DNA of 26,124 bases from a virus (lineage: Duplodnaviria; Heunggongvirae; Uroviricota; Caudoviricetes): positions 1 to 26,124 of the IMG/VR virus record IMGVR_UViG_2698536443_000009; one strand, written 5' to 3'. A program made the translations under genes and the position numbers. Within the stretch, counting starts at the first letter, position 1; each line of letters begins with the position of its first letter. The notes under the pieces are model-generated. The model had not been told where the DNA came from, searched no databases, and saw nothing but the letters and a program-made list of their open reading frames with translations. This document shows, piece after piece, positions 3,342-26,124 of this stretch.

Positions 3342-3431
3342 TTAACCCATAACGTGCAATGGCTGTCTTTATGAGGCCTGGCACCCTATTGCCTTCCGAT
3401 GGGCTGAACATCGAGTAAACAGGGGTAACAA

Positions 3432-4325: not shown

Positions 4326-4343
4326 CCTATCGGAGCATTAAGC

Positions 4344-5597
4344 ATGGCTAACCAATTAGCAAAAGACCTTGAAATCATGTTCGAAAACTACGTTGAAGGC
4401 TTTGAGGCCGCCTGCGTAGTTTCCCGTAACGCTAAAAAATTCCGTCCAGGTGATACAGCAATGCAGCGAGCAGGTGATGTTCTGTATCGTCCGCAGCATT
4501 ACCACATGAACATTGAGGAAGGCCTAGACCTCAGCGGCAAAACGCCAACAGCACTGGTTCAGCGCCTTGTTCCTTCTGTGTTCAAGGAGCCGAAAAACAT
4601 TCTGTACACTCTGGATGCGCGTGAAATGCGTGACCCGGAACATAAAACTGAAGCTGGTCGCGCCGCAGGTATGCGCCTTGCTGCACAGATTGACTCTGAC
4701 CTGATTTCCATGGTCACGCAGCGTGCTACTAACGTGATCACAATGGCTGACTCAACCACAGGCACACAGGGACGTGATTTGTGGAACTGTGCGGCAGGTA
4801 TTGATGCCACCATGACGGCGATTGGTGTACCTCAGGGTATCAACCGTCGCTCTTTCTGGAACCCCTTCAACTATAAAGACCTTGCTGGCGAGCTTGGTCA
4901 CCGTGCTTATGCTCAGGGCGCAACCCTGACAGCATACGAAAAAGCGCAGATCCCTCCGGTTGCTTCCTTTGATAGCTACAAGACCGATATTTCTGGTCGT
5001 GTTCCGAAAGGGACAGCAACTTCCATTACGCTGGCAGCAGCACCTGCGCACAAAGTTGAAGCGAAAGATGCTAACGATATGCCAGTTGATAACCGACAGG
5101 GGACCATTACGGTATCTGCATCTGGTTTGCAGGTTGGCGATGCGTTCACTATTGCTGGCGTGAATTCCGTACACCAGATCACAAAAGATACCACCGGTCA
5201 ACCGCAGGTATTCCGTGTTCTGGCAGTTAGCGGAACGACAGTAACTATCTCCCCGAAAATTCTGCCGCCTGACAACGCGGATGTCGCCAGCCGTCCATAT
5301 GCAAACGTTGATGCTAATGCGGCAAGTAGCGCAGCAATCACCATTCTCAACAAAAATGCCGCACCGGCTAACCTGTTCTGGGCTGATGGTTCTGTTGAAC
5401 TGATGTACGGCAAACTGGCGTTCCCGACTGGTCAGGGTCCACAGGTAATGACAGCAACCACCGAGCAGGGCGCTACGCTGATCATGTCTTACGCCTTCGA
5501 CCACATCAAAGGCGTAACCACTGCGCGTTTCACCACTCTGTACGGTTGCTCTGTACTGGTTCCTGAATATACGGGCATCGTTATTGCCGGGCAGTAA
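4344..5597 (+). CDS. Major capsid (coat) protein, P22 gp5-like
   Basis: 417 aa (P22 coat is 430 aa), positioned after the scaffold gene. Motifs such as FWADGSVEL parallel P22 FWADDAIRI. GGAG RBS 8 nt upstream of the ATG. Confidence 0.9.
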   Translation: MANQLAKDLEIMFENYVEGFEAACVVSRNAKKFRPGDTAMQRAGDVLYRPQHYHMNIEEGLDLSGKTPTALVQRLVPSVFKEPKNILYTLDAREMRDPEHKTEAGRAAGMRLAAQIDSDLISMVTQRATNVITMADSTTGTQGRDLWNCAAGIDATMTAIGVPQGINRRSFWNPFNYKDLAGELGHRAYAQGATLTAYEKAQIPPVASFDSYKTDISGRVPKGTATSITLAAAPAHKVEAKDANDMPVDNRQGTITVSASGLQVGDAFTIAGVNSVHQITKDTTGQPQVFRVLAVSGTTVTISPKILPPDNADVASRPYANVDANAASSAAITILNKNAAPANLFWADGSVELMYGKLAFPTGQGPQVMTATTEQGATLIMSYAFDHIKGVTTARFTTLYGCSVLVPEYTGIVIAGQ

Positions 5598-5603
5598 TTT
5601 AGG

Positions 5604-5627
5604 TGGGGCTTCGGCCCCATTTTTATT
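5604..5627 (+). terminator. Intrinsic terminator-like hairpin directly after the coat gene (GGGGC-UUCG-GCCCC followed by TTTTTATT)
   Basis: Seen directly: tGGGGC ttcg GCCCCa at 5604-5619 followed by a T-run at 5620-5627, starting 7 nt after the coat stop codon. Confidence 0.65.
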
Positions 5628-5638
5628 GGGAGAAGACA

Positions 5639-5827
5639 ATGGCACGAACAATGCTCTATAAGCCGGGCAACATGATCACCTGTGGTCAGTTTGCTGTCGA
5701 TTACATCATTGTTGATGACGAAGAAGTTAAATCTCACCTGAAAAAAGGTTGGGTAAAAACTCCTGAAGAAACCGCAACGAAGCAAAAAGTGGCTAAGGCG
5801 GAAGAAGATGGCGAAAACGAAGGGTGA
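5639..5827 (+). CDS. Small hypothetical protein (62 aa) between coat and gp4-like gene
   Basis: The track ORF 5603..5827 starts inside the terminator hairpin. The internal ATG at 5639 (MARTMLYKPGN...) is preceded by GGGAGAAG and is the more plausible start. Its 3-prime end overlaps the next gene by 20 nt. No function recognised. Confidence 0.5.
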   Translation: MARTMLYKPGNMITCGQFAVDYIIVDDEEVKSHLKKGWVKTPEETATKQKVAKAEEDGENEG

Positions 5828-6269
5828 TCTCGTTCTAAAGGCTTTACGAAAAGCCGGGCTGTATTCCAATGCCACGTTGACAGATGCTGACCCTCAGGCA
5901 ATTGAAGATGCCATTAATGACCTCGAAGACATGATGGCAGCATGGCAGGCGAAAGGTATCGAGCTTGGATATCAGTTTGCTGATACAGAAAACGGCATCA
6001 TGCCGTTACCTGACGATGATTCAGGTATCCCTGCATGGGCAAATGATGGCGTCGCTTTGAAACTCGCTGTGCAAGTGTGCATGGATAACGTCATTCATCC
6101 GTCAGACGCTCTCCTTACCGCTGCTGACAGTGCATATCAGACAATCTGTATCGCTTTAACCAAAATACCACCACTTGAGCGGCGAAATGACATGCCTCGC
6201 GGTAGTGGTAACAAAAGCGCGTTTACGTGGAATCGGTTTTACATCGAGAAAGATGATCCGAGTACGTGA
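5808..6269 (+). CDS. Head completion / tail adaptor protein, P22 gp4-like
   Basis: 153 aa. The N-terminus KTKGDLVLKALRKAGL..ATLTDADPQAIEDAINDLEDMMAAWQ parallels P22 gp4 ([41 protein letters not shown]); the C-terminal GSGN motif is also shared. Confidence 0.8.
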   Translation: MAKTKGDLVLKALRKAGLYSNATLTDADPQAIEDAINDLEDMMAAWQAKGIELGYQFADTENGIMPLPDDDSGIPAWANDGVALKLAVQVCMDNVIHPSDALLTAADSAYQTICIALTKIPPLERRNDMPRGSGNKSAFTWNRFYIEKDDPST

Positions 6270-6278
6270 GGTGAATAA

Positions 6279-7697
6279 ATGCCGATTCAGCAACTTCCGC
6301 TTATGAAAGGTGTCGGCAAAGACTTTCGAAACGCCGACTATATCGACTATCTGCCAGTGAATATGTTGGCTACACCCAAAGAAATCCTCAACAGCAGCGG
6401 ATATCTTCGCTCATTCCCGGGCATTGCCAAACGTTCTGATGTGAACGGTGTATCTCGAGGCGTCGAGTACAACATGGCGCAGAATGCTGTCTATCGTGTG
6501 TGTGGCGGCAAGCTCTACAAAGGCGAAAGCGAAGTCGGTGATGTTGCCGGAAGTGGTCGCGTATCAATGGCGCATGGTCGAACATCACAGGCGGTAGGCG
6601 TTAATGGTCAACTGGTCGAGTATCGCTATGATGGTACGGTTAAAACCGTCTCAAACTGGCCTACAGACAGCGGATTCACGCAGTATGAGTTAGGCTCAGT
6701 CCGCGATATTACGCGCTTACGTGGGCGTTATGCGTGGTCAAAAGACGGAACTGATTCATGGTTTATCACTGACCTTGAAGACGAATCACATCCTGACCGA
6801 TACAGCGCACAATATCGTGCAGAATCGCAGCCTGACGGCATCATCGGCATCGGAACATGGCGAGACTTCATCGTCTGCTTTGGCTCATCGACGATTGAAT
6901 ATTTCTCCCTGACGGGCGCAACCACTGTTGGTGCCGCTTTGTATGTCGCCCAGCCATCGTTGATGGTGCAAAAAGGAATCGCCGGAACTTACTGCAAAAC
7001 GCCGTTTGCTGATTCCTATGCGTTCATCAGCAATCCGGCAACAGGTGCGCCGTCTGTGTATATCATCGGCTCCGGCCAGGTATCACCAATCGCCAGCGCG
7101 AGCATTGAGAAAATTCTCCGCTCCTACACTGCTGATGAACTGGCTGATGGTGTGATGGAGTCTCTGCGATTTGATGCGCATGAGCTGCTGATTATCCATC
7201 TTCCGCGCCATGTTCTCGTGTACGACGCATCTTCAAGCGCCAATGGTCCGCAATGGTGTGTGCTGAAAACAGGCCTGTATGACGATGTGTACCGCGCTAT
7301 CGACTTCATTTACGAAGGCAATCAGATAACGTGCGGCGATAAGCTGGAATCCGTGACCGGGAAACTGCAATTCGATATCAGCAGCCAGTATGACAAGCAG
7401 CAGGAACACCTGCTGTTTACTCCACTCTTCAAAGCAGATAACGCCAGATGCTTTGATCTGGAGGTGGAATCATCGACGGGTGTTGCTCAGTACGCTGACC
7501 GCCTTTTTCTCTCTGCAACCACTGACGGCATAAATTACGGACGTGAGCAGATGATTGAGCAGAATGAACCGTTCATTTACGACAAACGCGTTTTGTGGAA
7601 GCGTGTCGGGCGCATCAGGAAAAATGTCGGCTTCAAACTTCGCGTTATCACGAAGTCACCTGTCACTCTGTCTGGCGCTCAGATAAGGATTGAGTAA
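6279..7697 (+). CDS. Tail hub protein, P22 gp10-like
   Basis: 472 aa, the same length as P22 gp10, located between the gp4-like and gp26-like genes. Identification is by synteny and size. Confidence 0.75.
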
Positions 7698-8650
7698 TGG
7701 CGGATTCGAATCTCAATGTGCCGGTAATCATTCAGGCTACACGGCTCGACACATCAATCCTTCCACGCAATATCTTCTCGCAGTCGTATCTGCTTTACGT
7801 TATCGCACAGGGTACTGATGTTGGTAACGTGGCTAACAAGGCCAACGAAGCAGGGAAGGGGGCTTATGATGCACAGGTGAAGAATGATGAGCAGGATGTC
7901 ACCCTTGCAGACCATGAATCCAGAATTGAAGCTGCTGAAGCAACTCTCATCAATCATGAACATAGAATTGCAGCAGCGGAAAGCACTCTTGCAGAACATG
8001 AAACAAGGATTACGGCTGCTGAAACAGAGCTGGCTGATCACGAGACGCGAATTGCTGCCAATGAATCTGAGTTAGCAAACCATGATGCGCGCATAACTCA
8101 GAATACAACCGATATCGACGCACTTGATACCAGGCTCACAGCGGCAGAGGGAAGTATTTCGACGCTACAAAGCACAGCTGGTGATCACTCAACAAGAATA
8201 TCTGCGCTTGAGTATGCCACCACGCGCAAGAAATCAGAGGTTGTTTACTCAGGGGTATCGGTAACAATTCCGACAGCGCCTACCAACCTTGTTAGTCTGC
8301 TGAAAACGCTCACGCCGTCATCCGGCACGCTGGCACCATTCTTCGACACCGTTAACAACAAGATGGTTGTGTTCAACGAGAACAAAACCTTGTTCTTCAA
8401 GCTGTCGATCGTCGGGACGTGGCCCAGCGGAACCGCCAACAGGTCAATGCAACTAACATTTTCCGGCTCTGTTCCTGACACACTGGTAAGCAGTCGCAAC
8501 TCGGCGACAACGACCGATAACATCCTGTTAGCTACGTTCTTCAGCGTGGATAAAGACGGCTTTCTTGCCACAAATGGCAGCACGTTAACCATTCAGTCAA
8601 ATGGTGCGGCGTTTACTGCCACAACCATCAAGATAATCGCGGAGCAGTAA
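7697..8650 (+). CDS. Tail needle protein, P22 gp26-like, with extended C-terminal domain
   Basis: The N-terminus [43 protein letters not shown]...[14 protein letters not shown] is near-identical in pattern to the P22 gp26 N-terminus. It is followed by coiled-coil heptad repeats and a about 150 aa C-terminal domain absent from P22 gp26 (233 aa). Confidence 0.85.
7901..8110 (+). repeat. Five imperfect tandem 42-nt (14-aa) repeats encoding the coiled-coil core of the tail needle
   Basis: Translated units [14 protein letters not shown] / [14 protein letters not shown] / [14 protein letters not shown] / [14 protein letters not shown] / [14 protein letters not shown], read directly from the ORF. 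Confidence 0.55.
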
Positions 8651-9105
8651 TGATTCAGTTCAAACCAACGCGAAACATCGACCTGATCGAAGCTGTCGGA
8701 AATCACCCTGACATTATTGCCGGAAGCAACAACGGTGATGGATACGACTACAAGCCTGAATGCCGTTACTTTGAGGTTAACGTGTACGGTCAGTTTGGCG
8801 GCATTGTTTACTATCAGGAAATTCAGCCGCTTACATTCGATTGCCACGCCATGTACCTGCCAGAGGTTCGTGGATTCAGCAAGGAAATCGGGCTGGCGTT
8901 CTGGCGATACATTCTGACTAACACCACCGTTCAGTGCGTCACATCGTTCGCTGCGCGCAAATTCCGCCACGGTCAGATGTACTGCGCAATGATTGGCCTT
9001 AAGCGTGTAGGAACCATCAAGAAATACTTCAAAGGCGTGGATGACGTGACGTTTTACAGCGCCACACGCGAAGAACTAATCGACTTCCTGAATCACGGGA
9101 GATAG
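8650..9105 (+). CDS. gp14-like protein (position of P22 gene 14)
   Basis: 151 aa ORF between the tail needle and ejection-protein genes; its ATG overlaps the preceding stop (TAATG). Assignment is by synteny only. Confidence 0.55.
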   Translation: MIQFKPTRNIDLIEAVGNHPDIIAGSNNGDGYDYKPECRYFEVNVYGQFGGIVYYQEIQPLTFDCHAMYLPEVRGFSKEIGLAFWRYILTNTTVQCVTSFAARKFRHGQMYCAMIGLKRVGTIKKYFKGVDDVTFYSATREELIDFLNHGR

Positions 9106-9107
9106 CT

Positions 9108-9803
9108 ATGTTATATGCATTTAAGCTGGGCAGAAAACTGCGCGGCGAGGAACCTTATTGCCCTGAAAAAGGCGGGAAAGGTGGCAGCTCTGATAAAAGC
9201 GCAAAGTATGCCGCAGAAGCTCAGAAGTATGACGCAGACCTGCAAAATAAACAGTGGCAGACGATCATGAAAAACCTTGCTCCGTTCACGCCGCTTGCGG
9301 AGCAGTATGTTAACCAGCTTCAGAATCTTTCCAGTTTAGAAGGACAGGGGCAGGCACTTAATCAGTATTACAACTCTCAGCAGTATAAAGACCTTGCAGG
9401 TCAGGCGCGTTACCAGAGTCTTGCTGCTGCGGAGGCGACGGGAGGACTTGGCTCGACAGCCACAAGCAATCAACTGGCCACGATTGCCCCGACTCTCGGT
9501 CAGTCGTGGTTGTCGAACCAGATGAGCAACTACAACAATCTGGCAAACATTGGCCTTGGTGCGCTGCAAGGTCAGGCGAACGCCGGGCAGACATACGCCA
9601 ACAACATGAGCAGCATTGCGCAGCAAAGCGCAGCTCTTGCCGCTGCTAATGCCAATAAACCATCAGGCCTTCAGACAGCAATTAGCGGCGGAGCTTCAGG
9701 GGCTATGACTGGCGCTGCTCTTGGCTCTATTGTTCCCGGGCTTGGCACTGGATTAGGTGCGGCAATTGGCGGCGGACTTGGCCTGCTTGGCTCGTTGTTT
9801 TAA
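9108..9803 (+). CDS. Ejection (internal head) protein, P22 gp7-like
   Basis: 231 aa (P22 gp7 is 229 aa), first of three consecutive ejection-protein genes, with a Gly/Ala-rich hydrophobic C-terminus. RBS GGGAGA. Confidence 0.7.
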   Translation: MLYAFKLGRKLRGEEPYCPEKGGKGGSSDKSAKYAAEAQKYDADLQNKQWQTIMKNLAPFTPLAEQYVNQLQNLSSLEGQGQALNQYYNSQQYKDLAGQARYQSLAAAEATGGLGSTATSNQLATIAPTLGQSWLSNQMSNYNNLANIGLGALQGQANAGQTYANNMSSIAQQSAALAAANANKPSGLQTAISGGASGAMTGAALGSIVPGLGTGLGAAIGGGLGLLGSLF

Positions 9804-9812
9804 GGGGTAATC

Positions 9813-11201
9813 ATGGCTACTTGGCAAGGATCAAATGGCGGATTGTTGGCTGGTATCGGCGGTGTCAACTCAAACGCTCCGAGCGTAAATGACATCGGCA
9901 ATACGCTTCAGCTTATCAGGCAGAACAATGATATTGAGCGTTCAGGCGCTAACAATGTTGGGCTGACTGCTTTGCAAGGCCTTTCAGGTATTGCGGGGGT
10001 GTTTCAGCAGGAAAAGCAGGCTCAGCGGCAGAAAGAATTTCAGCAGGCATACGCTAATGCTTATGCGTCTGGTGATCGCGGTGCTTTGCGTCAGTTGGCT
10101 ACTCAATATCCAGACCAGATTGAATCCGTTCGTAAAGGCATGGGATTCATTGATGAAGACCAGCGCAATTCTATCGGCACCTTAGCGGCTGGCGCTCGTC
10201 TTGCGGCATCGTCTCCAGAAGCAATGCAATCATGGCTGCAAAACAACGCCAAGGAACTGACTCGCGTCGGTGTTGACCCTAACAACGTTGCTCAGATGTA
10301 TCAGCAGAATCCTTCAGGATTTGGTGAGTTTGTTGATCACCTTGGGATGGCTGCGCTTGGTCCGATTGATTACTTCAATGTTCAGGACAAGATGGCTGGT
10401 CGTGAGATTGATCGCGGAAAACTTGCAGAGACAATCCGCAGCAATCAGGCTGGCGAGGCGCTAACAGCACGAGGCCAGAACATCACGATGCGCGGTCAGG
10501 ACTTATCTGCTTCTACTGCGCGACGCGGGCAGGATTTGGCAATGCAGCGAGCGTCAACAAGAGGAACCGCTGGGAATGATGAGCGTACAGTTCAGTTATC
10601 AGATGGCAGAACTGTAACGGTAGGCGGGAAACTTCACGGCGCTGGGGCTAATGCGTTCTACGAAGGCATCGACAACGAGGGGAATATGGTTCGCGTTCCT
10701 GCCAGTTCAATCGCAGCGCCTGCAACATCGTCTGCATCAGCACAAAACTATGCCATGAAGAAGGATATCGACGCGATCGCAAATGCAGACGCTTCTGCTC
10801 TCGATTTCATGACAGGAATGACAGGCGGTGCAGGTAATCCAGCAATTGGTGCTGATGTTCGCAGCCGATTAACAGGAAAAGAGCAGCGCCAGTTATATAA
10901 CTCAGCACAACGTATTCAGGGCAGAATGCAGAATCAGGGTGTGGCGGCAGCAAGGGACATGGGTGCCAGTGGTATTAACACCGTTGCAGAAGCGAAGATG
11001 TATTTTCAGGGGATGCCGCAGGTTGACTATTCAAGCCCGGAGGCTATGCAGCAGTCGATTCGTGAGATTCAGGAATACACCAACAATTACAACCAACAAT
11101 ATAACGTTAATGTTGGTAAATCTCAGCGGCAGCAATCTCAACCTGCACAGGTATCACAGCCAGCAGCCAGCAGTAACTTTTCTTCACTATGGGGTGATTA
11201 A
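9813..11201 (+). CDS. Ejection protein, P22 gp20-like
   Basis: 462 aa (P22 gp20 is 471 aa), in the syntenic position. RBS AAGGGG. Confidence 0.7.
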
Positions 11202-13198
11202 TGGCTAAAGCATGGAAAGATGTTATCGCCTCTCCACAGTATCAGGCGTTAGCACCAGAACAAAAAGCGCAGGCTCAGGAGCAATACTTCAATGAAGTCG
11301 TGGCCCCGCAAGCCGGAGAAAATGCAGAGCAGGCTAAGCAAGCTTTCTATGCTGCCTATCCATTGCCATCTGTGCAGCAAGTGGAGACACAGCAACCAGT
11401 AGCACAGCAACAACCACAGCAAAGTGGATTTATGTCTGATCTTGGCGAAGCAGTAAAAGAGACTGGTCGCGGACTGGTGCAGGCTGGCGTGAACGTGGCA
11501 AACATACCTGCATCAGTCGCCGATGCTGTAACAAGCGCGGCGGCTTGGGCTGGCGGTAAACTCGGCATTGGCGATGGTACATATCAACCAGCGCCACGAG
11601 TAACAACGCAGGGATTAGAGCAGGACTTTGGCCTTCAGCAAGGTGCGCTGACTCCACAAACGACAGAGGGAAGGGTATTTGCTGAAGCATTGCCTTACCT
11701 CACTCCTGCTGGAGTTGAGAGAGCTGCAACACAGGCACCAACACTTGCTGGTCGAATTGCTCAGGGTGCAACTCGCCTTCTCGCAGAAAACGCAGTTGGA
11801 TCACTTGCTGCAAATAGTGCGAAAGATGATGCGGAAGCACTCGCCACCGATTTAGGCGTTGGTGTGTTGGCTGGCGGTGCTATTAACGCTGCCGGACGTG
11901 GATTAGGTGCTGCTTATCGTGGCGTTCGTGGTGCTATTGCGCCAGAAGCGCAGCAGGCTATCAGATTTGCAGAGCGTGAAGGAGTGCCTCTGCACACCAC
12001 AGACCTGTTACAACCTACTTCCCGCGTCGGAAAAATGGCTCAGACTACAGCAGAAAATATCCCTCTGGCTGGCACAAGCGGAATGAGAGCAACGCAACAG
12101 GAAGCGAGAAGTCAGTTGGTGCAGAGATTTGCCGATAAATTCGGGGAGTATGATCCAGCGGTTGTTATTGACAGCCTTAAAGCGAAAACATCAGGAATTC
12201 GTCGTGCTGCCGGTAATCGACTGGAGCAGGTTCAGAATGCTATGGCTGGAGTAAACATTCAACCTGCGCGAGCAATTCAGCAGATTGATACAGAAATATC
12301 TAACCTGCAGAAGCTTGGTAAGGTTGCTGATAACGAGACTATTTCAAAACTTCAGTCATATCGTGATGAGCTTGTTCGCAATGCTGGTCCTGATGGTCCG
12401 GTCAATCTGGATTTGAAGCAATTAAGCGATCTGCGCAGCCAGTTCAGAATGGACGTGAAGGGTGAGCGACCAGTGTTACCAAACCGTTCCGATGCTGCCA
12501 TTCAGCGAGTTTACAAGGCGATGACCGACGATATCAATGGTGCCATTGGTCAGAATCTTGGCAATGATACTCTTCGTAAATATCAGCAGGCCAATGCCGT
12601 CTACGCTGACGAAGCGGCGAAACTAAAGAATACCAGGCTGAAGAATGTTCTCATGAAAGGCGACCTGACGCCGGAAGTTGTCAACAACATGCTATTCAGC
12701 AAGAACAAATCGGAAATTAAGACTCTGTATAACTCAGTTGGTCGTGTTGGCAGGGCGCAAATGCGCAATGGCATCATTGGAAAGGCGATGGAGAAATCAG
12801 GTGGTTCCCCTGACCAGTTCCTTCGGCAACTTAACATCCTGCAAAACCAGACTGGCATCACATTTAAAGGTCAGGAAGCCGCTTATCTGAAAGGATTGAA
12901 AAACTACCTGCAATCCACGCAACAGGCTGCAAAAGCAGCAGTAACAACACCAACAGGGCAGCAAACCATCCCGTTCATTATCGGGTATGGGACGGCAATG
13001 AACCCGGCGACAACTGGCGCAGCGGTAAGCTACGGACTTCTTACTCGCGCCTATGAGAGCGAGCCATTCAGAAATGCAATGCTCCGAATGGCAAACACAC
13101 CACGCGGATCAACAGCGTTTGAGAAAGCCATGCAGCAGGCGCAAAAGGCCATTAACGCCCTGACTCAGGGTGCCAAGTCTGATGCGTTGTCAGAATAG
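11201..13198 (+). CDS. Ejection protein, P22 gp16-like
   Basis: 665 aa (P22 gp16 is 609 aa), last gene of the ejection trio, with a TAATG overlap to the preceding gene. Confidence 0.7.
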   Translation: MAKAWKDVIASPQYQALAPEQKAQAQEQYFNEVVAPQAGENAEQAKQAFYAAYPLPSVQQVETQQPVAQQQPQQSGFMSDLGEAVKETGRGLVQAGVNVANIPASVADAVTSAAAWAGGKLGIGDGTYQPAPRVTTQGLEQDFGLQQGALTPQTTEGRVFAEALPYLTPAGVERAATQAPTLAGRIAQGATRLLAENAVGSLAANSAKDDAEALATDLGVGVLAGGAINAAGRGLGAAYRGVRGAIAPEAQQAIRFAEREGVPLHTTDLLQPTSRVGKMAQTTAENIPLAGTSGMRATQQEARSQLVQRFADKFGEYDPAVVIDSLKAKTSGIRRAAGNRLEQVQNAMAGVNIQPARAIQQIDTEISNLQKLGKVADNETISKLQSYRDELVRNAGPDGPVNLDLKQLSDLRSQFRMDVKGERPVLPNRSDAAIQRVYKAMTDDINGAIGQNLGNDTLRKYQQANAVYADEAAKLKNTRLKNVLMKGDLTPEVVNNMLFSKNKSEIKTLYNSVGRVGRAQMRNGIIGKAMEKSGGSPDQFLRQLNILQNQTGITFKGQEAAYLKGLKNYLQSTQQAAKAAVTTPTGQQTIPFIIGYGTAMNPATTGAAVSYGLLTRAYESEPFRNAMLRMANTPRGSTAFEKAMQQAQKAINALTQGAKSDALSE

Positions 13199-13267
13199 CT
13201 TCGCAAACACCAGGAACGTGCAAAAACCAAATATGTAGAACGCAATATTCATCATATCTCTTTGCAT
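13190..13267 (-). CDS. Candidate small hydrophobic peptide (25 aa, MQRDMMNIAFYIFGFCTFLVFAKLF) downstream of mnt
   Basis: On the minus strand, GGAGG (13276-13272) lies 4 nt before an ATG at 13267; the ORF runs to a TGA at 13192-13190. It is too short for the ORF track. It occupies the position where P22 carries sieA/hkcC. Confidence 0.25.
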   Translation of the reverse strand: MQRDMMNIAFYIFGFCTFLVFAKLF

Positions 13268-13287
13268 AAATCCTCCGTAATGGATGG

Positions 13288-13551
13288 TTAGTTGCTGTCT
13301 TTTTTATATAGCTCCTTTAGCGTGTCAAAGACAATTTTCTTAACCATATCGGATTGTTGTTCTGCCATACGCTCTGCATCGTCAATGTAAACTGATGCAG
13401 AGCTTTGTTTATCCAGTGATTCTTCAATCGCTGCAATTATCTCTGAGTTCAGAGACCTGTTATTCATCTTCGCACGCTGTTTAATCTTCGCGTGGAGTTC
13501 ATGCGGAAGTCTCAAGTGAAACTGCGCCTCGTCGTATTTGCTGTACATCAT
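13288..13551 (-). CDS. mnt: Mnt repressor (Arc/MetJ ribbon-helix-helix family), P22 immI region
   Basis: From the MMYSKYDE start, the protein aligns along its length with P22 Mnt: FHLRLPHELHAKIKQRAKMNNRSLNSEIIAAIEESLDK versus FNFRMPMEVREKLKFRAEANGRSMNSELLQIVQDALSK, and DDAERMAEQQSDMVKKIVFDTLKELYKK versus NDAERLADEQSELVKKMVFDTLKDLYKK. The track ORF is extended upstream to 13632; the start at 13551 (or 13548) has a GGTGAGG RBS. Confidence 0.85.
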   Translation of the reverse strand: MMYSKYDEAQFHLRLPHELHAKIKQRAKMNNRSLNSEIIAAIEESLDKQSSASVYIDDAERMAEQQSDMVKKIVFDTLKELYKKDSN

Positions 13552-13962
13552 CAATGCCTCACCTAATGGGTGGAATGGCATCGTAAAACCTACTGTACAA
13601 ATCAACAATCGTACCGTTTCGGTATGTAACAAACGCCAACCGTAGCCATGCTGCGGCGATTCCTTGTATCTGGAGCAAATTAAATGACAGATATTATAAA
13701 TAGGAATTTTTATTTAATAATATTTGAAAATTAAAATCATGGACGATAGGAATAAAAGTAGTACTTGTCATTTTTAAGTGACGCATTAAACGCATAAAGC
13801 ATATGTCTGTTGATCAAGATTCTTACTTGTTGTAAAATAATTGTCCTGTTCATGTTGCATGGTTTTAAAATGAATAGAAGATTATTTTTCAAAACAATTG
13901 CATCTTTGTCTGCAGTCATTCCGTTTTCTTCAATATCTAAATTTTCAAACAGGATGACTAAT
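13552..13962. promoter_or_regulatory. AT-rich control region between mnt and the tailspike gene (expected Pmnt, possible operator remnants and tailspike promoter)
   Basis: About 410 bp of AT-rich non-coding sequence with several inverted repeats (CACC-N6-GGTG near the mnt start; AAATGACA ... TGTCATTT separated by about 75 bp). P22 has arc and ant here; they are absent. Confidence 0.35.
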
Positions 13963-16194
13963 ATGCCTGATATAACTCCAAATGTTGTAATTGGGATGCC
14001 TTCGCAACTCTTCACTATGGCTCGCTCTTTTAAAGCGGTAGCCAATGGCAAAATTTATATAGGAAAAATTGACACTGACCCGGTAAATCCTGAAAACCAA
14101 ATTCAGGTTTATGTAGAGAACGAAGACGGTTCTCACGTTCCTGTTTCGCAACCAATCATCATTAACGCTGCTGGTTATCCGGTATATAACGGACAGATTG
14201 CCAAATTCGTAACCGTGCAAGGCCATTCAATGGCTGTTTATGATGCATACGGTGCGCAGCAGTTCTATTTTCCTAATGTGCTGAAGTATGACCCTGATCA
14301 GTTTAGAACAATAATAGAGTCAAATTATGGTGCGGGGCATGTTGGTACTTCGTCTGGACTAACAATTCAGCAGTTGATTGATTCTTTTATTGTAGTTACA
14401 CCACAAATGTTTGGTGAATCTGGAAAGTCAAATGATTCAACAATAGCAATTAACTCTGCATTGGACTATCTTGAGTCTCTAGGTGGTGGGATTATTTATC
14501 TTCCTCCAGGTAAATATTACGTCAGCATTGAAAAATCAGGTCATAATTATTCATGCATTAGAGTTCCCGCTAACGTAACTTTCTGTGGGGCTGGTGCTGG
14601 ATCTACCATCATTCAGAGACTACCCACTGAGAGGGGGATGGATGGTGTCTTGATAACAAATAAATATTATGATACTAGAACTGGCTATGGAGCTGCCGGC
14701 AATATTGTTTTTAGAGATTTTACAATCACTGACGGTAGCGCAACCCCAACAAGGGATTATGGTGATTTAATCGGTTTAGGTCATAGCAAAAATGTAACTA
14801 TAGAGAGAGTGGAGCAAGGGAGACATGATCAACATTTTGTTGATATTGCAGGATCAACCGATGTAACAGTCAAAGACTGTCACGGGTCGTGTGATATGGA
14901 GGTGGACCATATTACGTGGAATTGTGATATACAGATTGATTCCGCTCAACCAAACGCAATACTTGGAATTAAAGTTGATGGCACACCTAGCACAAATATA
15001 ATTATTAGCGGAAATAAACTTCAAAACAAAAGCTCAAATTTGCAAATTGAAATAGGACATGCTGGGGGAGTATATAGAAATATTATTATTTCTGATAACA
15101 TACTTGATGGGGCATATTTTCAAGACTCATCAGTTATTGGTTGTAACTCAACAACAGCTACCATTATCAATTTGAGCATAAATAACAATCAAATACTAAC
15201 AAATAATATAAATTCAAGAGGTGTTAATCTTTATTGTCTTGGGAATAACGAAAAACTTATTGGTATTTCTTTTAGTAATAATATTATAAGAGGTTATGCT
15301 AGGATTGGTGCATGGTTTGGGACTAATGGTAATTATACTGGAACGAAGTTTCCTCATGATGATGTAACAATAATAGGAAATAAATTCTTTCTAACATCGC
15401 CTTCATCTGGAACATTTGTTCAAGGTGTTGTTGTTGCTGGTTGGCGATCTGTTGTATGTAGTGATAATATAGTTGAGATATATTCTGATAATGAATTTTC
15501 TTCAGGGTGTTCGGTGATATCAGTTTGGAAAAATGGTAGTGCTAAGGTAAGTGATAACAATATCTCTAGAACATGTGGTGCAACACCTGACGTATCATCT
15601 TCAGTTATTTCGTTGATACTAATCACCCCTGAACCTTCCAGCATTGATAAGGCGTCATCAATCCATATTAATGGAAATGCTTTCTTTGGAGATATTCCTA
15701 GATATGCAATAAATCACAAAGAAGGGTGGATTGAAGGATATGACATGATAGTTGTATCAGGCTCTCATGGTAGATTTAACCAAACATTTATAGGCACGCA
15801 AGGGGCGCATATGTATGAAACGTACCCAATTTCTGATATGACAAATTTCAATCAACCAGTGTCAATAAATGGTCAATATAGAAGGCAGGTATACAGAGGA
15901 AATATTTACAAGTCAACGTTCAATTTGAAGAAAAATGGAAGTGAAACAAGTGGGGCTAAGGTGGATTTTTTTATATCTAATGAACGCTCAAAAATAACAG
16001 GTTCTGAACAATTGAATGTAGCATATATATCTCCAACTGAGTCTGTGGGAATCACCGCTACATCAATAGATTTGTCATCAGGAACACTTAATATAATTAC
16101 TGGAACAAATGGTGTATCTATGAATTTAAATCCATCCAATAAGCAGCCTGAAATAAGAAATAGCGCGTATATAAGCGCAAGGATTTCCATTTAA
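13963..16194 (+). CDS. Tailspike protein: P22 gp9-like head-binding N-terminal domain plus divergent receptor-binding domain
   Basis: [97 protein letters not shown]...[10 protein letters not shown] matches the P22 tailspike N-terminal domain closely. AGGA RBS 8 nt upstream of the ATG at 13963. The rest is AT-rich and unrelated to P22 gp9. The track ORF starts further upstream at 13810. Confidence 0.9.
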
Positions 16195-16985: not shown

Positions 16986-18158
16986 TTGCTGTTGAAACGC
17001 CGTCTTATTATTGCTGCTTCTTTGTTCGTTTTTAACTTATCGTCTGGTTTTGCGGCGGAAAACATTCCTTTTTCACCTCAGCCTCCAGAGATTCATGCCG
17101 GGTCCTGGGTATTGATGGATTACACCACCGGTCAGATCCTCACCGCGGGTAATGAGCATCAACAGCGCAATCCCGCCAGCCTGACAAAGCTGATGACGGG
17201 TTATGTCGTGGATCGCGCTATCGATAGTCATCGCATTACGCCAGACGATATTGTCACCGTGGGGCGCGATGCGTGGGCGAAAGATAATCCGGTGTTTGTC
17301 GGTTCTTCACTGATGTTTTTGAAAGAGGGCGATCGCGTATCGGTACGTGATTTAAGCCGTGGTTTAATTGTGGATTCCGGAAATGACGCTTGTGTTGCTC
17401 TGGCTGACTATATTGCCGGTGGGCAACGGCAGTTTGTTGAAATGATGAACAACTATGCCGAGAAGCTGCATCTCAAGGATACGCATTTTGAAACAGTGCA
17501 TGGTCTGGATGCACCTGGCCAGCATAGCTCGGCTTATGATTTAGCTGTGCTTTCTCGTGCTATCATCCACGGCGAGCCCGAGTTTTATCATATGTACAGT
17601 GAGAAAAGTCTCACCTGGAACGGTATCACCCAGCAAAACCGTAACGGGTTGTTGTGGGATAAAACCATGAATGTTGACGGCCTGAAAACGGGTCATACTT
17701 CTGGTGCCGGGTTTAATCTCATTGCTTCGGCTGTAGATGGGCAGCGTCGTCTCATTGCAGTGGTAATGGGGGCTGACAGTGCAAAAGGTCGTGAGGAAGA
17801 GGCAAGAAAATTACTGCGTTGGGGGCAACAAAACTTTACTACGGTGCAAATTTTGCACCGTGGGAAAAAGGTCGGAACGGAACGCATCTGGTATGGCGAT
17901 AAAGAAAATATCGACCTGGGAACGGAACAAGAGTTCTGGATGGTGCTACCGAAAGCCGAAATTCCACATATCAAAGCCAAATATACCCTTGATGGTAAAG
18001 AACTCACCGCGCCAATTAGCGCCCATCAGCGGGTAGGGGAAATTGAACTTTACGACCGTGATAAACAGGTGGCGCACTGGCCGCTGGTTACCCTGGAATC
18101 TGTCGGGGAAGGCAGCATGTTTTCTCGCCTGAGTGATTATTTCCACCATAAGGCCTGA
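16986..18158 (+). CDS. dacD: D-alanyl-D-alanine carboxypeptidase DacD (PBP6b)
   Basis: Signal peptide, SLTKLMT (SxxK active-site motif), SGND and KTGHT motifs typical of class A low-molecular-weight PBPs. Length and sequence fit E. coli DacD. Start is TTG at 16986 or the TTG at 16992 (giving 388 aa). Confidence 0.93.
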   Translation: MLLKRRLIIAASLFVFNLSSGFAAENIPFSPQPPEIHAGSWVLMDYTTGQILTAGNEHQQRNPASLTKLMTGYVVDRAIDSHRITPDDIVTVGRDAWAKDNPVFVGSSLMFLKEGDRVSVRDLSRGLIVDSGNDACVALADYIAGGQRQFVEMMNNYAEKLHLKDTHFETVHGLDAPGQHSSAYDLAVLSRAIIHGEPEFYHMYSEKSLTWNGITQQNRNGLLWDKTMNVDGLKTGHTSGAGFNLIASAVDGQRRLIAVVMGADSAKGREEEARKLLRWGQQNFTTVQILHRGKKVGTERIWYGDKENIDLGTEQEFWMVLPKAEIPHIKAKYTLDGKELTAPISAHQRVGEIELYDRDKQVAHWPLVTLESVGEGSMFSRLSDYFHHKA

Positions 18159-20607: not shown

Positions 20608-20964
20608 TTAACAACAGCCTTCTTCTGTATGCAGCAAGGCAAAAAGTTCTGTAACTCCATTGTTATTAACTGCACTGGTTACTAACACGTTGTGCGCTCC
20701 AGCTTCCCGTAACCAACTTTTCACCAAAGATATTTGTTCCATGCTGGCTAAATCTGCTTTGGTTACTACTCCAATGACCGGGTGATTCATGGCCCGGTAG
20801 GGCGTTTTTACCTCTAATTCCTGCTTCAGCGCTGAGATTCCTGCTTGTTGCCAGAAAAGCAGGCACCTGCCGTCTGAACGGTATCGATCCGGAAGCGTAT
20901 CTGCGCCATATTCTGAGCATACTGCCGGAATGGCCCTCCAACCGTGTTGACGAACTCCTGCCAT
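20608..20964 (-). pseudogene. EutP/PduV-like GTPase C-terminal fragment (yoeF-like remnant); only about 20608..20830 is protein-like
   Basis: The C-terminal part of the ORF (HPVIGVVTKADLASMEQISLVKSWLREAGAHNVLVTSAVNNNGVTELFALL) resembles the C-terminal region of EutP/PduV-type proteins. The N-terminal part is the antisense of the IS66-like fragment and is W/R/C-rich, so the gene is truncated. Confidence 0.45.
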
Positions 20965-24704: not shown

Positions 24705-24736
24705 AAAAAAGCCGCGTCTCCCGGAGAAGACGCGGC
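24705..24736 (-). terminator. Intrinsic terminator downstream of the two-gene cargo operon (minus strand)
   Basis: Minus-strand hairpin GCCGCGUCU ucuccggg AGACGCGGC (9-bp stem) followed by UUUUUU (plus-strand A6 at 24705-24710). Confidence 0.6.
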
Positions 24737-24879
24737 CTGACGGGTGAAATGAATAAGGTTTATTGTCTGAGAGGCCTTTCACTGGCGAGCCACGCATTAA
24801 GCGGCTTTCCGGTAACAATGGCTGGGGCTGTATTTACCTTTGATATTAATAATGTGCAGAGAAACGCATGGTTTACTCC

Positions 24880-25290
24880 TTAGATTTTAAGTTTGTCCTG
24901 GGCTACAACGACAGGTTTTCCGGATGTGTCGATGACTCCTACCGTCGGTACGCCATTTTTGATTTCGAAGAACGGTTTGTTGCTACCTGAGCACAGTTGA
25001 TTGTCCCCGTATTCAATCATTTGTGCTTTCCCGGTTTTCAGGTTAACTACCGAGACAGTGTAGTCGTAGCACCAGGCACCACCACGTTCAAGCACGAAAA
25101 CATAGCTGTTATCTTTATAGTTGAACTGATTCTTTGTCTGGCAATTCATACCGTCAATTTCGGTACAGGAAAACGCTTCTGTAGTATTAACGTATTTGAT
25201 GTTATTTGGCAGTTTTACTTGTTTCGCAGTAGCGAAGACAGAGAACAGAATAGTTACAGCAACGAGTAAAGTTTTGATAAAAGTTTTCAT
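24880..25290 (-). CDS. Secreted Cys-containing protein of unknown function (136 aa, N-terminal signal peptide)
   Basis: MKTFIKTLLVAVTILFSVFATA is a signal peptide; the mature part has four Cys and no recognised family. AT-rich relative to neighbours. It lies 15 nt downstream of the Ivy-like gene. Confidence 0.6.
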   Translation of the reverse strand: MKTFIKTLLVAVTILFSVFATAKQVKLPNNIKYVNTTEAFSCTEIDGMNCQTKNQFNYKDNSYVFVLERGGAWCYDYTVSVVNLKTGKAQMIEYGDNQLCSGSNKPFFEIKNGVPTVGVIDTSGKPVVVAQDKLKI

Positions 25291-25305
25291 GATAGACTCC
25301 TTAAA

Positions 25306-25794
25306 TTAGTTAACCGCAGCTACGTAGTTTTTCACCAGATACGCGAATTCATGCACGCCAATTTCACCGAACCAAACCAGGTAGGCCGGGTCATCTAAAC
25401 CAAAGTAACGGTAGCCAACAACTTCATGGGTTTTTGGGTTATAGAGTGTTACGATAAAGTCCCAGCCGCAGGTATTGGCTTTGCAACCGTCGCCCTGGAA
25501 CCAGACTGTACCGTTAATGTTTACTGGCGTGATACCTCCACCAGGGCCATCCATATAGCCGCCTTTACCGAACATGCCGCTCAGTCCGACCGGTTTTAAT
25601 GCTTTGTCGATAGCGGCTTTGTAGGTAGCGTCACCTTCGTACAACTCGTACGTTGATGGACACGCTCCAGGTTGTTCAGCCCAGGCTTCCGGGTTACAAC
25701 TAAGAGCTTGTTTTACGGTAGCCGCTTCTGCGTTAAAGTTAAAGCCCGTGAACAGAACCGCCAGAAATAACATAAGGGTATGTAAACGTTTCAT
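25306..25794 (-). CDS. Periplasmic Ivy-like protein (candidate lysozyme-inhibitor-fold protein), 162 aa from the internal ATG
   Basis: Signal peptide MKRLHTLMLFLAVLFTGFNFNAEA. The mature region aligns by eye with E. coli Ivy: KAAIDK / KAAFNQ, FGKGGYMDGP / MKGGTYTP, and GDGCKANTCGWDFIVTLY against SACKPHDCGSQRIAVMW, but the loop histidine is missing. The track ORF (25306..26097) extends upstream from a GTG and may include 5-prime UTR. Confidence 0.5.
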   Translation of the reverse strand: MKRLHTLMLFLAVLFTGFNFNAEAATVKQALSCNPEAWAEQPGACPSTYELYEGDATYKAAIDKALKPVGLSGMFGKGGYMDGPGGGITPVNINGTVWFQGDGCKANTCGWDFIVTLYNPKTHEVVGYRYFGLDDPAYLVWFGEIGVHEFAYLVKNYVAAVN

Positions 25795-26124
25795 TGTAAA
25801 TATTCTTCCGTTGTAAATGGCGCTGGAAAATTTCTCATCAGTGAAACCTTCCGGAAGTTTCCCCCCCTTGTATGATGTATATCGCCAGTATTTTATTTCA
25901 TCCCGGCTGTAATTTTTATATTCCCCGGCACGTGCAATAACGCTGACCAGAGATATAAGGCTCATTAATAACTTTACAGGTAATTTCATAATTAAATTTC
26001 CAGTGAGTGAATTGACAGGTGAGGGGTAAAACTTTCTCTCAGGTAATATATATCTGAAAATATTTTCAATAACACCAGACAGGAAAAACACCACCACAGG
26101 CGGTGGCGTTTCTTTGGGGCGTCT

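Follow-up and report, generated by a model that had tools for sequence, protein, structure and literature searches.

The stretch of DNA analysed here (the window; 26,124 nucleotides from virus record IMGVR_UViG_2698536443_000009) carries a cassette of two genes for secreted proteins, and this cassette is of jumbo-phage origin. A copy of the phage gene order, namely an Ivy-like gene, gene 2 and the start of gene 3, occupies the cargo slot of CP4-44-type islands of E. coli and Shigella. The product of gene 1 is an Ivy-fold periplasmic protein that retains the disulfide-closed loop, gene 2 falls into a jumbo-phage family, and the two proteins may inhibit phage enzymes that cleave peptidoglycan.

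Gene 1 was located at 25306..25794 (minus strand) and encodes a 162-aa periplasmic protein that is a divergent member of the Ivy family. Gene 2 was located at 24880..25290 (minus strand) and encodes a secreted all-beta protein of 136 aa with four invariant cysteines. Both open reading frames had been placed at these coordinates in the preliminary description. In gene 1, the signal peptide codons (25794..25723, minus strand) are followed by the codons of the mature protein (25722..25309, minus strand) and the stop codon (25308..25306, minus strand), and the signal peptide of gene 2 is encoded at 25290..25225 (minus strand). As read from the sequence, the cleavage sites lie between MKRLHTLMLFLAVLFTGFNFNAEA and A in gene 1 and between MKTFIKTLLVAVTILFSVFATA and K in gene 2, with the mature proteins beginning at A25 and K23, respectively. 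The loop C104-K-A-N-T-C109 is encoded at 25468..25485 (minus strand), and C104 and C109 were invariant across 26 relatives of gene 1. The extra N-terminal cysteine pair, C33 and C45, was nearly invariant among the relatives. The signal peptides, the CKANTC loop and the extra cysteine pair had all been pointed out before and were all read in the sequence.

The conserved start of gene 1 is the Met codon at 25794, and many family members begin with MKRL. Two longer candidates for the conserved gene, the mechanical open reading frame up to 26097 and the 227-aa CDS that PGAP starts at 25989, were rejected on account of this start. The PGAP CDS is a chimera, in which the 65-codon 5' stub (25795..25989, minus strand) of a separate secreted-protein gene, 180 aa when intact, is fused in frame to gene 1. 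Residues 1-63 of the 180-aa protein encoded at 5098..5640 of L006 matched the stub with 49% identity (E 4e-18), and type B loci contain an in-frame TGA inside the same stub. The chimeric 227-aa model was also used in a preprint, and expression constructs should begin at the Met of 25794.

Gene 2 starts 15 nt past the stop codon of gene 1 and has the ribosome-binding site AAGGAG. The terminator scan identified an intrinsic terminator with a 13-bp stem, a 4-nt loop and a T-tail at 24709..24738 (minus strand), which ends the cassette just ahead of the DUF932 gene of the CP4-type block. The scan also identified a G+C-rich hairpin followed by a T-run at 26089..26105 (minus strand), directly after the patatin-like gene, and this hairpin parts the upstream patatin-like gene from the cassette. 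The window edge coincides exactly with the end of the patatin-like CDS as annotated in the twin locus L001. A promoter search upstream of gene 1 found no sigma-70-like consensus. Alignment with L020 and L002 revealed a 7-codon stub (MRFSAHY, then a stop) of a third phage gene at 24846..24869 (minus strand). This gene is intact in the phage contigs, where it encodes a 129-aa secreted protein of phrog_5248 that is homologous to SPN3US_0183 (L002, 6920..7309). The cassette had been described as a self-contained two-gene operon with its own terminator; the terminator was found (24738..24709), but the unit is less tidy than a two-gene operon, for it carries two gene stubs, 25989..25795 and 24869..24846.

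Nucleotide alignment showed that the segment 24848..25801 (minus strand) is a phage-type cassette, collinear with uncultured jumbo-phage contigs. It was 77.6% identical to L020 (4994..5942) over 959 bp and 69% identical to L002. The similarity spans gene 1, gene 2 and the gene 3 stub and stops at 24848. Because the DNA match covers all three, the "operon" is a captured phage block. The gene order of L002 and L020 followed that of SPN3US_0177-0186 and of Erwinia jumbo phages, with seven genes in synteny, and the SMC-domain protein of the contig was 71% identical to gp207 of Asesino. The phage status of the two contigs was assigned by synteny and contig size, the contigs behind L020 and P0007 measuring 168-221 kb, and not from a complete genome. 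In the uncultured contigs, the Ivy-like gene occupies the slot that a four-Cys paralogue takes in cultured phages, and in this uncultured jumbo-phage lineage an Ivy-like gene thus stands in for the first tandem paralogue. A tblastn search for Ivy-like proteins gave no match in 50,697 phage records, and no Ivy-fold model was found in BFVD.

Gene 2 had been presented as a protein of no recognisable family. It matched phrog_8968 with an E value of 2.6e-45, residues 1-131 aligning with model positions 1-133 of 135, and we place it in that family on the basis of sequence, an assignment that is new here. Homologues of gene 2 were found by tblastn in 40 jumbo-phage records, with identities of 35-37%, and the four cysteines were invariant with the phage homologues included. 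In jumbo phages of the SPN3US and Asesino types, the phrog_8968 proteins occur as tandem paralogues, encoded among three tandem genes for secreted four-Cys proteins beside an SMC-domain gene (SPN3US_0181/0182/0183 and Asesino gp202/203/204; phrog_8968 and phrog_5248). Gene 2 is a member of this group (33-37% identity), and it shares with the phage proteins the four invariant cysteines, the length of 136 aa and the gene order ahead of the SMC-domain gene. Comparison with hhalign showed the SPN3US_0181 and SPN3US_0183 families to be its paralogues (95.9% and 96.4%). Unlike the cassette, the cultured SPN3US/Asesino-type phages have no Ivy-like gene at this position. The G+C content of gene 2 was 0.38-0.42, in keeping with the AT-richness noted earlier, and that of the neighbouring genes was about 0.5-0.6. 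The structure model of gene 2 was of moderate confidence (pLDDT 69), and it gave no fold match to solved inhibitor folds, including PliC/MliC, PliG and PliI.

The Ivy fold, a central five-stranded antiparallel sheet with helices on its flanks, had been proposed for gene 1 and was found in it. The family profile of gene 1 aligned with Ivy chains 1gpq/1xs0 with an E value of 9e-14 and with the loops in register; the six-residue disulfide loop stands at the inhibitory position of Ivy, and its cysteines align with both cysteines of CKPHDC. Pfam Ivy (PF08816) was matched by 23 of the 26 relatives at E <= 0.01, at least one of these matches falling under the gathering cut-off. Gene 1 was 36% identical (E 2e-19) to an Ivy fusion protein that scored 44.3 bits on PF08816. 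A direct Pfam scan of gene 1 gave no match at E <= 1, its score on NCBIfam NF007443 was 11.6 bits (E 0.19; cut-off 180), and a PDB sequence search returned nothing significant. The CKAHAC allele P0008 scored 16.8 bits on Pfam Ivy, where the cut-off is 21. As the direct family scans of gene 1 were empty, the link to Ivy is made only by structure and profiles.

The CKPHDC motif is strictly conserved in 30 canonical Ivy members, with a related CExxDxC in 5 others, and this loop is reportedly essential for the inhibition of hen egg-white lysozyme (PMC4262234). The window does not have this motif with its inhibitory His. It reads CKANTC at the corresponding position (25485..25468), with Asn107 in place of His60. 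The loops of other gene 1 alleles are CKANAC, CKAHAC, CKSNAC and CKSDAC, so that Cys, Lys and Cys are invariant and the three middle residues vary. The loss of the inhibitory His, claimed in the preliminary description, therefore holds for the window allele but not uniformly, because some alleles have CKAHAC. Gene 1 also differs from Ivy (YkfE; PF08816, NF007443; PDB 1GPQ, 1XS0, 1UUZ) in being only 18-21% identical to the solved Ivy proteins, in having the extra pair C33/C45, in lying on a mobile island and on phage-like contigs instead of the chromosomal ykfE locus, and in having very diverse alleles inside one species.

Ivy fusion proteins of Enterobacterales, in which an Ivy domain is followed by a C-terminal domain rich in cysteines, were found in Salmonella, Pectobacterium, Citrobacter and others on CP4-type islands. 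Their occurrence in the same island type is new here. The fusions (among them WP_342414257.1 of Pectobacterium and WP_240776469.1 of Salmonella) are the closest sequence relatives of gene 1 outside E. coli and share its N-terminal cysteine pair and the CP4-like element type. Their loops are variable (CEDGNC, CEANNC and CEAHNC). The order of an Ivy domain followed by a four-Cys domain mirrors that of gene 1 followed by gene 2, but the fusions are single polypeptides of 302-316 aa, whereas the window has two separate genes. The fusions carry the PGAP/NCBI name 'Ivy family c-type lysozyme inhibitor' and score above the Pfam Ivy cut-off, whereas the protein encoded by gene 1 of the window does not. 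There may be a weak relation between the C-terminal domain of the fusions and the gene 3 family (hhalign E 1.9e-4, probability 48%), which we take as a hint and not as a finding. Homology of gene 2 to the same domain, suggested by eye from the cysteine spacing and from the resemblance of 'YVFVLERGGAWC' to 'YVAVLNRRSATGC', was rejected, the hhalign probability being below 1%.

In a survey of 5,426 assemblies, about 43% of the complete E. coli genomes had gene 1 and about 43% had gene 2, and more than 1,900 complete genomes retained at least 80% of each gene. The locus was common in gut, STEC and avian-pathogenic E. coli, and the carriers included O157, O103 and O111 strains. A close-family alignment search of species representatives found only Shigella flexneri. 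Co-occurrence of the pair had been named as a check. The two genes were adjacent in three of the four locus types (A, B and D), and the adjacency was kept in two unrelated contexts, E. coli islands and jumbo-phage-like contigs, despite protein identities of only 58-81% and 62-82%. In type C loci, however, gene 2 was cleanly deleted and gene 1 was intact. Since gene 2 is lost there while gene 1 persists, the two are not obligate partners. In some strains, gene 1 was interrupted by IS elements.

Both genes are under purifying selection, with dN/dS of 0.10-0.26 among alleles at dS 0.6-2.3 (gene 2 alone, 0.14-0.25). The dS of the flanking genes was 0.1-0.5, below that of the cassette alleles. Gene-wide positive selection was set aside, the gene-wide dN/dS being well below 1. 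The most variable segment of gene 1 was the hairpin just ahead of the loop, in a purely descriptive comparison of 12 sequences.

The cassette had been put forward as a candidate undescribed system. A CKANTC Ivy-like protein had already been reported in 2024, in the PHAGEPACK preprint, as Hypo_04657 of E. coli O121, for which inhibition of phage lysozyme was proposed (bioRxiv 10.1101/2024.04.20.590424). Like gene 1, Hypo_04657 has an Ivy-like AlphaFold model, a 'CKANTC' loop and hypothetical genes around it, and by its published description it is almost certainly the gene 1 protein. In the preprint, the 227-aa Hypo_04657 is divided into two domains, one of them a helical membrane domain; in our analysis, the extra part consists of the stub of another gene and the gene 1 signal peptide. 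The preprint's account of Hypo_04657 leaves aside gene 2, the origin in phages, the series of alleles and the fusion proteins, all of which are reported here. The gene 2 family, the DNA match to the phage block, the chimeric nature of the 227-aa model and the fusion proteins are new.

The likeliest function of the cassette, which we propose tentatively and by analogy, would be a Spackle-like periplasmic inhibition of phage peptidoglycan-cleaving enzymes. Both proteins would leave the cytoplasm through the Sec pathway, and their disulfide bonds would form in the periplasm. The Ivy-like loop would then enter the catalytic cleft of a phage-borne peptidoglycan glycosidase or lytic transglycosylase, either a virion-borne enzyme acting at entry or an endolysin. 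The outcome would be less productive infection or less lysis from without, as with T4 Spackle, which inhibits the gp5 tail lysozyme from the periplasm (PMC7677548, PMC7650644). Gene 2 would probably be a second binder of the same target class or a partner of the Ivy-like protein, and the island copy may act as a domesticated superinfection-exclusion or defence module. T4 Spackle (gp61.3) is likewise small, Sec-exported, disulfide-bonded, periplasmic and phage-encoded, properties that are predicted for the cassette proteins, which have signal peptides and whose homologues are encoded as gene pairs on contigs syntenic with SPN3US and Asesino. The cassette proteins have no known sequence similarity to Spackle and presumably an unrelated fold, Spackle being reportedly all-helical, and the likeness is an analogy of mechanism only.

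The signal peptides and conserved cysteines of both proteins count for the phage-inhibitor reading, as do the Ivy fold of gene 1, the phage origin of the cassette, the slot that the Ivy-like gene shares with a four-Cys paralogue, the adjacency of the two genes in types A, B and D, the fusion proteins, the low dN/dS with its variable hairpin, and the precedents of Ivy acting on MltB and of Spackle. In E. coli O121, T7 plated with higher efficiency when the CKANTC protein was knocked down by CRISPRi, although many other envelope genes were hits as well and the reading given to the result in the preprint is loose (bioRxiv 10.1101/2024.04.20.590424). Knockdown of gene 1 is expected to be polar on gene 2. 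The preliminary description had suggested that gene 1 was retargeted to another hydrolase; a phage enzyme as the new target fits the published CRISPRi data, but nothing in the surroundings pointed to a colicin or type VI target. Counted against the phage-inhibitor reading is that the loop in the gene 1 family often lacks the His that Ivy needs. The IS-truncated copies of gene 1, the loss of gene 2 in type C, the lack of a promoter match, the moderate gene 2 model without an inhibitor fold and the assignment of L002 and L020 to phages by synteny and contig size were also counted against it. Moreover, T7 lysozyme is an amidase, and an Ivy-type loop is not known to act on that enzyme. A PADLOC-DB 2.0 scan with gene 1, gene 2 and three neighbouring secreted proteins gave no match at E <= 1, which likewise counts against the reading.

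Other functions were considered. The Ivy-like protein, perhaps with gene 2, could be a host-colonisation factor that inhibits animal lysozyme (c-, g- or i-type) reaching the periplasm, as chromosomal Ivy, MliC/PliC, PliG and PliI do. This would suit the Ivy fold and periplasmic targeting of gene 1, the alleles that keep His at the Ivy position (CKAHAC), the frequency of the locus in gut, STEC and avian-pathogenic E. coli, and the c-type lysozyme inhibitor name that NCBI gives to the related fusions. We consider it unlikely, because the window allele lacks the His of the CKPHDC motif reported to be essential against hen egg-white lysozyme (PMC4262234), ivy and mliC are already present on the E. 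coli chromosome, the cassette is also found in lytic jumbo-phage-like contigs, where protection from animal lysozyme would be of little evident use, and the sole reported phenotype is phage-related. Alternatively, the pair could damp endogenous lytic transglycosylases, stabilising the envelope or, in a phage, delaying lysis for a bigger burst. MltB, a lytic transglycosylase, is inhibited by Ivy in vitro, and a role in regulating transglycosylases has been suggested for lysozyme inhibitors (PMC10139938, PMC3660660); a two-protein control of this kind is known from the inhibitor/anti-inhibitor of MltF (PMC10746161), and lysis timing would be compatible with the phage context. Such self-regulation is nevertheless quite unlikely for an accessory locus that is patchy and easily truncated, and whose allelic divergence, far above that of the flanking genes, suits a changing external target over housekeeping enzymes. 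In addition, ivy and mliC mutants were wild-type-like in growth and morphology under overexpression of lytic transglycosylases (PMC10139938).

The cassette could also encode orphan immunity, carried on a mobile element, to the peptidoglycan-degrading toxins of rivals, such as type VI muramidases and pesticin- or colicin-type lysozymes, as the preliminary description had suggested. Its products are periplasmic, small, disulfide-rich, hypervariable and mobile-element-borne, which are traits of orphan immunity genes, but no effector, type VI or bacteriocin gene adjoined the cassette in any of the locus types examined, Pfam and NCBIfam gave no match to a known immunity family, and the ancestry of the cassette is phage, which makes this very improbable. 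Finally, the cassette could be a decaying passenger, a relic of phage-island recombination without present function in E. coli. The flanking-gene stubs, the deletion of gene 2 in type C, the disruption of gene 1 by IS elements and the lack of a detected promoter would be expected of a relic. Against this, both open reading frames are intact, purifying selection acts on them across alleles that have diverged deeply, they are retained in the numbers of genomes given above, and a knockdown phenotype has been reported; we regard decay as an improbable explanation.

The phage-inhibitor reading can be extended, though the extension is doubtful, to a modular array carried by jumbo phages of the SPN3US and Asesino group and, through them, by about 40% of E. 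coli strains, in which the four-Cys proteins and the swapped-in Ivy-fold protein would all inhibit the entry peptidoglycan-cleaving enzymes of rival phages. The island copy would be a domesticated entry-stage defence, and the variants of the loop and hairpin would set which phages are blocked. If this is true, the four-Cys family would be a new class of peptidoglycan-hydrolase inhibitors. If the Ivy-like protein does block phage enzymes in the periplasm, it would form a cell-wall-stage anti-phage barrier, a kind of which few are known, and the Ivy scaffold would be retargetable through three loop residues. The proposal gives a first functional hypothesis for a conserved, uncharacterised block of jumbo-phage genes and for two genes that, though widespread in E. 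coli, are currently annotated as hypothetical. As an example of bacteria acquiring genes from a lytic phage, the transfer from a jumbo-phage lineage to a CP4-type island is unusual, and the cassette could help account for strain-to-strain differences in phage plating, which is of relevance to phage therapy.

The cassette is encoded on the minus strand and comprises gene 1, the Ivy-like secreted-protein gene (25306..25794, 162 aa), and gene 2, the four-cysteine secreted-protein gene (24880..25290, 136 aa). In the mechanical ORF listing, gene 1 lies inside a longer frame (25306..26097, -). Both products carry typical Sec signal peptides, ending in AEA-A and ATA-K, respectively. The gene 1 stop and the gene 2 start are separated by 15 nt, gene 2 is preceded by an AAGGAG site, and its G+C content drops to 0.38-0.42. 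A further seven-codon ORF, MRFSAHY (24869..24846, -), begins 10 nt past the gene 2 stop behind a similar site and is followed by a terminator with a 13-bp stem (24738..24709, -). A hairpin lies on the 5' side of the cassette (26105..26089, -), and the stretch ahead of gene 1 yielded no sigma-70-like promoter. The locus is 100% identical to its annotated twin in E. coli O103:H2 12009 (L001), where two hypothetical proteins are flanked by a patatin-like gene on one side and a DUF932-antirestriction-yeeS-yeeT-cbeA block on the other. The twin locus adjoins yeeA, sbmC and dacD, and its position is the CP4-44 site.

The window also holds, on the plus strand, the late-gene region of a P22/Sf6-like prophage (1125..16194), with genes for the portal (1125..3341), coat (4344..5597), stabilisation protein (6279..7697), Sf6-type tail needle (7697..8650), injectosome translocase (9813..11201) and a tailspike with a P22 head-binding domain (13810..16194). 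This region adjoins dacD (16986..18158), at the place where the O103 twin locus has sbcB. A 118-aa ORF (20608..20964, -), with a C-terminal match to the EutP/PduV GTPases (E 6e-13), seems to be a fragment of a gene at the island edge; in the twin locus a short EutP/PduV CDS is annotated nearby.

The PGAP model of gene 1 is a 227-aa protein (WP_000775500.1) starting at 25989, and many gene 1 alleles are 160-161 aa long with the N-terminus MKRL. The extra 65 codons (25795..25989, -) share 49% identity (E 4e-18) with residues 1-63 of a separate 180-aa secreted protein, the gene of which is intact in another locus type (L006 5098..5640). In type B loci the same stub is broken by an in-frame TGA, and DNA similarity to uncultured jumbo-phage-like contigs starts 7 nt ahead of the ATG at 25794. 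Taken together, these observations speak against the PGAP model: the conserved start of gene 1 is 25794, not 25989, and the 227-aa CDS is a deletion chimera in which the 5' stub of the 180-aa secreted-protein gene is joined to a complete gene 1. The intact 180/185-aa protein had no match in Pfam, PHROG or PADLOC.

Direct sequence scans failed to connect gene 1 with Ivy: there was no match in Pfam or the PDB, and the NCBIfam Ivy model gave only 11.6 bits (E 0.19). The link was made by structure and profiles. With 12 E. coli alleles as input, AlphaFold2 gave a confident model of the mature protein (pLDDT 85.6, pTM 0.83). An exhaustive profile search returned 58 proteins; 23 of the 26 aligned relatives matched PF08816 at E <= 0.01, and the profile of gene 1 relatives matched the Ivy chains 1gpq/1xs0 (E 9e-14). 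The Ivy loop CKPHDC is reported to be both essential for inhibition of hen egg-white lysozyme and strictly conserved in the 30 canonical family members, while 5 others have a related CExxDxC motif (PMC4262234). In the profile alignment the Cys-x4-Cys loop of the gene 1 family falls exactly over CKPHDC; in gene 1 it reads CKANTC, with Asn at the His60 position. Other E. coli alleles have CKANAC, CKSNAC, CKSDAC or CKAHAC, with both cysteines and the lysine constant and the three middle residues variable; remoter relatives mostly have C[EQK][AP]HNC. The extra cysteine pair, C33/C45, is almost invariant throughout the clade. The likeness to Ivy, the replacement of CKPHDC by CKANTC and the extra N-terminal cysteine pair, all noted by eye in the preliminary description, were thus correct in every detail. 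Gene 1 encodes a divergent Ivy-family protein, with the Ivy fold, a conserved loop scaffold and export signals.

Outside E. coli, the closest relatives of gene 1 are 302-316 aa long and come from Salmonella, Pectobacterium, Citrobacter, Hafnia, Rahnella and E. marmotae; such proteins also occur in some E. coli, and PGAP names them 'Ivy family c-type lysozyme inhibitor'. In these fusion proteins an Ivy domain, with loops CEDGNC, CEANNC or CEAHNC, precedes a C-terminal domain that has four cysteines. Gene 1 shares 36% identity (E 2e-19) with the N-terminal domain of one of them, a protein scoring 44.3 bits against PF08816. The fusion genes lodge between DUF932 and antirestriction/RadC genes of CP4-like elements. 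In five loci (L012..L016, ~2494..3402) the 302-aa fusion protein has the loop CEDGNC, without His, and a predicted regulator of ~231-243 aa precedes the gene; in L012 a 178-aa membrane protein also precedes it. The C-terminal domain showed no significant similarity to gene 2 and a weak one to the family of gene 3, a 129-aa secreted-protein gene of the phage contigs (hhalign E 1.9e-4, probability 48%, four cysteines in register). This fusion hints, short of proof, at a joint function of Ivy and four-cysteine domains.

Gene 2 matches phrog_8968 over its full length (E 2.6e-45) and is a member of this jumbo-phage family. By tblastn it was found at 35-37% identity in 40 jumbo-phage records, including Salmonella SPN3US-like phages, Erwinia phages and one Escherichia phage, and its four cysteines are invariant in all of these homologues. 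Two divergent gene 1 alleles, P0014 and P0007, sit on the jumbo-phage-like contigs (L002 and L020, metagenomic, 64-221 kb) in the order YfjT-like, p128, Ivy-like, gene 2, gene 3, p158, p202 and an 834-aa SMC-domain protein, the last with 71% identity to Asesino gp207. Except for the Ivy-like gene, p128 through the SMC-domain gene have same-order homologues in SPN3US (0180, 0182-0186), and the order is also conserved in Erwinia phage pEa_SNUABM_29 and Asesino. The cultured phages carry SPN3US_0181 or Asesino gp202 at the Ivy-like position, and the SPN3US_0181, gene 2 and gene 3 families are paralogues (hhalign: 95.9%, E 5.5e-9; 96.4%, E 1.3e-9; 85.3%, E 5.9e-6). The Ivy-fold gene has thus taken the place of one member of a three-gene array in the uncultured lineage. 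No Ivy-like protein was found in 50,697 phage records or in BFVD.

In cultured jumbo phages, the genes for a single membrane-anchored protein and for three paralogous secreted proteins with four cysteines form a conserved run upstream of the SMC-domain gene (L024 3099..4808, SPN3US_0180-0183; L026 3255..4987, Asesino gp201-204), all annotated as hypothetical. The jumbo-phage-like contigs also encode secreted proteins of the YfjT family (PF27224; L002 4598..5551 and L020 4106..4567), which is otherwise named for a gene of the E. coli CP4-57 element. These proteins had no match among the 50,697 phage records. Together this suggests that genes have moved both ways between CP4-type islands and the phage lineage of the contigs.

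Window positions 25801..24848 align with L020 4994..5942 at 77.6% DNA identity without rearrangement, from 7 nt before gene 1 to ~20 nt inside gene 3, where the match ends; the MRFSAHY stub is therefore the start of gene 3. Four locus types were distinguished: type A (this window) has the stub, gene 1, gene 2 and the gene 3 stub; type B (L018/L019) is the same with the first stub interrupted; type C (L005-L009, L022-L023) has the 180/185-aa gene, a p128 remnant, gene 1 and a junction with the gene 3 stub, gene 2 being cleanly deleted; and type D comprises the phage contigs, with the YfjT-like to SMC-domain order and adjacent Ivy-like gene and gene 2. Type C islands retain the p128 3' end and its GGAG-type ribosome-binding site ahead of gene 1. 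Because the phages have genes 2 and 3 side by side as the ancestral state and the island holds only truncated gene 3, plus truncated p128 in type C, transfer from a phage-type block to the island is the simplest reading. The pair thus looks like a segment captured from a block of jumbo-phage genes.

Both genes occur together in three of the four locus types despite protein identities of 58-81% (gene 1) and 62-82% (gene 2), and gene 1 is able to persist without gene 2 (type C). Among 5,426 complete E. coli genomes, gene 1 was matched in 2,333 (>=80% of the gene covered in 1,934) and gene 2 in 2,366 (2,290); among 185,579 species representatives the close family was found in Shigella flexneri only. 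With dN/dS of 0.10-0.26 and 0.14-0.25, respectively, at dS 0.6-2.3 (Nei-Gojobori), both are genuine coding genes subject to purifying selection. Values of dS are 0.1-0.5 for the patatin, DUF932 and antirestriction genes that flank them in the same loci, so the allelic lineages of the cassette are much older than those of its surroundings. In a descriptive comparison, gene 1 amino-acid diversity peaked in the hairpin just before the loop (0.44 vs a mean of 0.28) and was lowest after it.

Directly upstream of the cassette, just past window position 26124, a cluster conserved in island types A, B and C (L001 1311..8000) encodes a YeeP-like GTPase, a 794-aa dynamin-family protein, an RdcB/YjcZ-family protein and the patatin-like phospholipase. 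IS elements disrupt gene 1 in some strains (L027 114..2850; hits H1-H5). ISKpn26 (IS5-like) interrupts the region in several chicken isolates. In strain 21AR0707, the sole IS-disrupted locus examined, ISEc12 (IS21-like) cuts off the 5' end of gene 1 and gene 2 is intact.

The PHAGEPACK preprint reported that knockdown of Hypo_04657, the CKANTC protein of E. coli O121, raised T7 plating efficiency, superposed its AlphaFold model on Ivy 1XS0, pointed out CKANTC for CKPHDC and proposed phage-lysozyme specificity (bioRxiv 10.1101/2024.04.20.590424). In the literature collection searched, no other paper contained CKANTC. What the preprint describes as a 'helical transmembrane domain' is the stub together with the signal peptide of gene 1, and a polar effect of the CRISPRi knockdown on gene 2 would be expected as well. 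The main idea of the preliminary description, an Ivy-type inhibitor retargeted to another hydrolase, had thus already appeared in print as a hypothesis; the interpretation given there is supported in part, and part of it had been published before.

T4 Spackle binds the gp5 tail lysozyme (PMC7677548; PMC7650644). By analogy with this inhibitor of a virion-borne enzyme, a periplasmic cassette protein might block a phage peptidoglycan glycosidase or transglycosylase, a role that we consider plausible but tentative. T7 lysozyme is an amidase, and the T7 plating result therefore fits poorly with it as the target. The N-terminal domain of T7 gp16 is a virion-borne transglycosylase used at entry, and an Ivy-type inhibitor in the periplasm would more naturally act on such an enzyme. 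Inhibition of animal lysozymes seems improbable for a protein with CKANTC. The lytic transglycosylase MltB, too, is inhibited by Ivy in vitro (PMC10139938; PMC3660660). A role of the cassette in regulating endogenous transglycosylases or the timing of lysis is unlikely, and we give similarly little weight to immunity against bacterial muramidase toxins. That two genes with such low dN/dS are a decaying passenger without present function is likewise doubtful.

This analysis adds the origin of the cassette in phages, the assignment of gene 2 to a family, the recognition that the annotated gene model is chimeric, the series of alleles and the fusion relatives. Our verdict is that the cassette represents a putatively retargeted Ivy subfamily, borne by phages and islands and accompanied by a phage protein with four cysteines.
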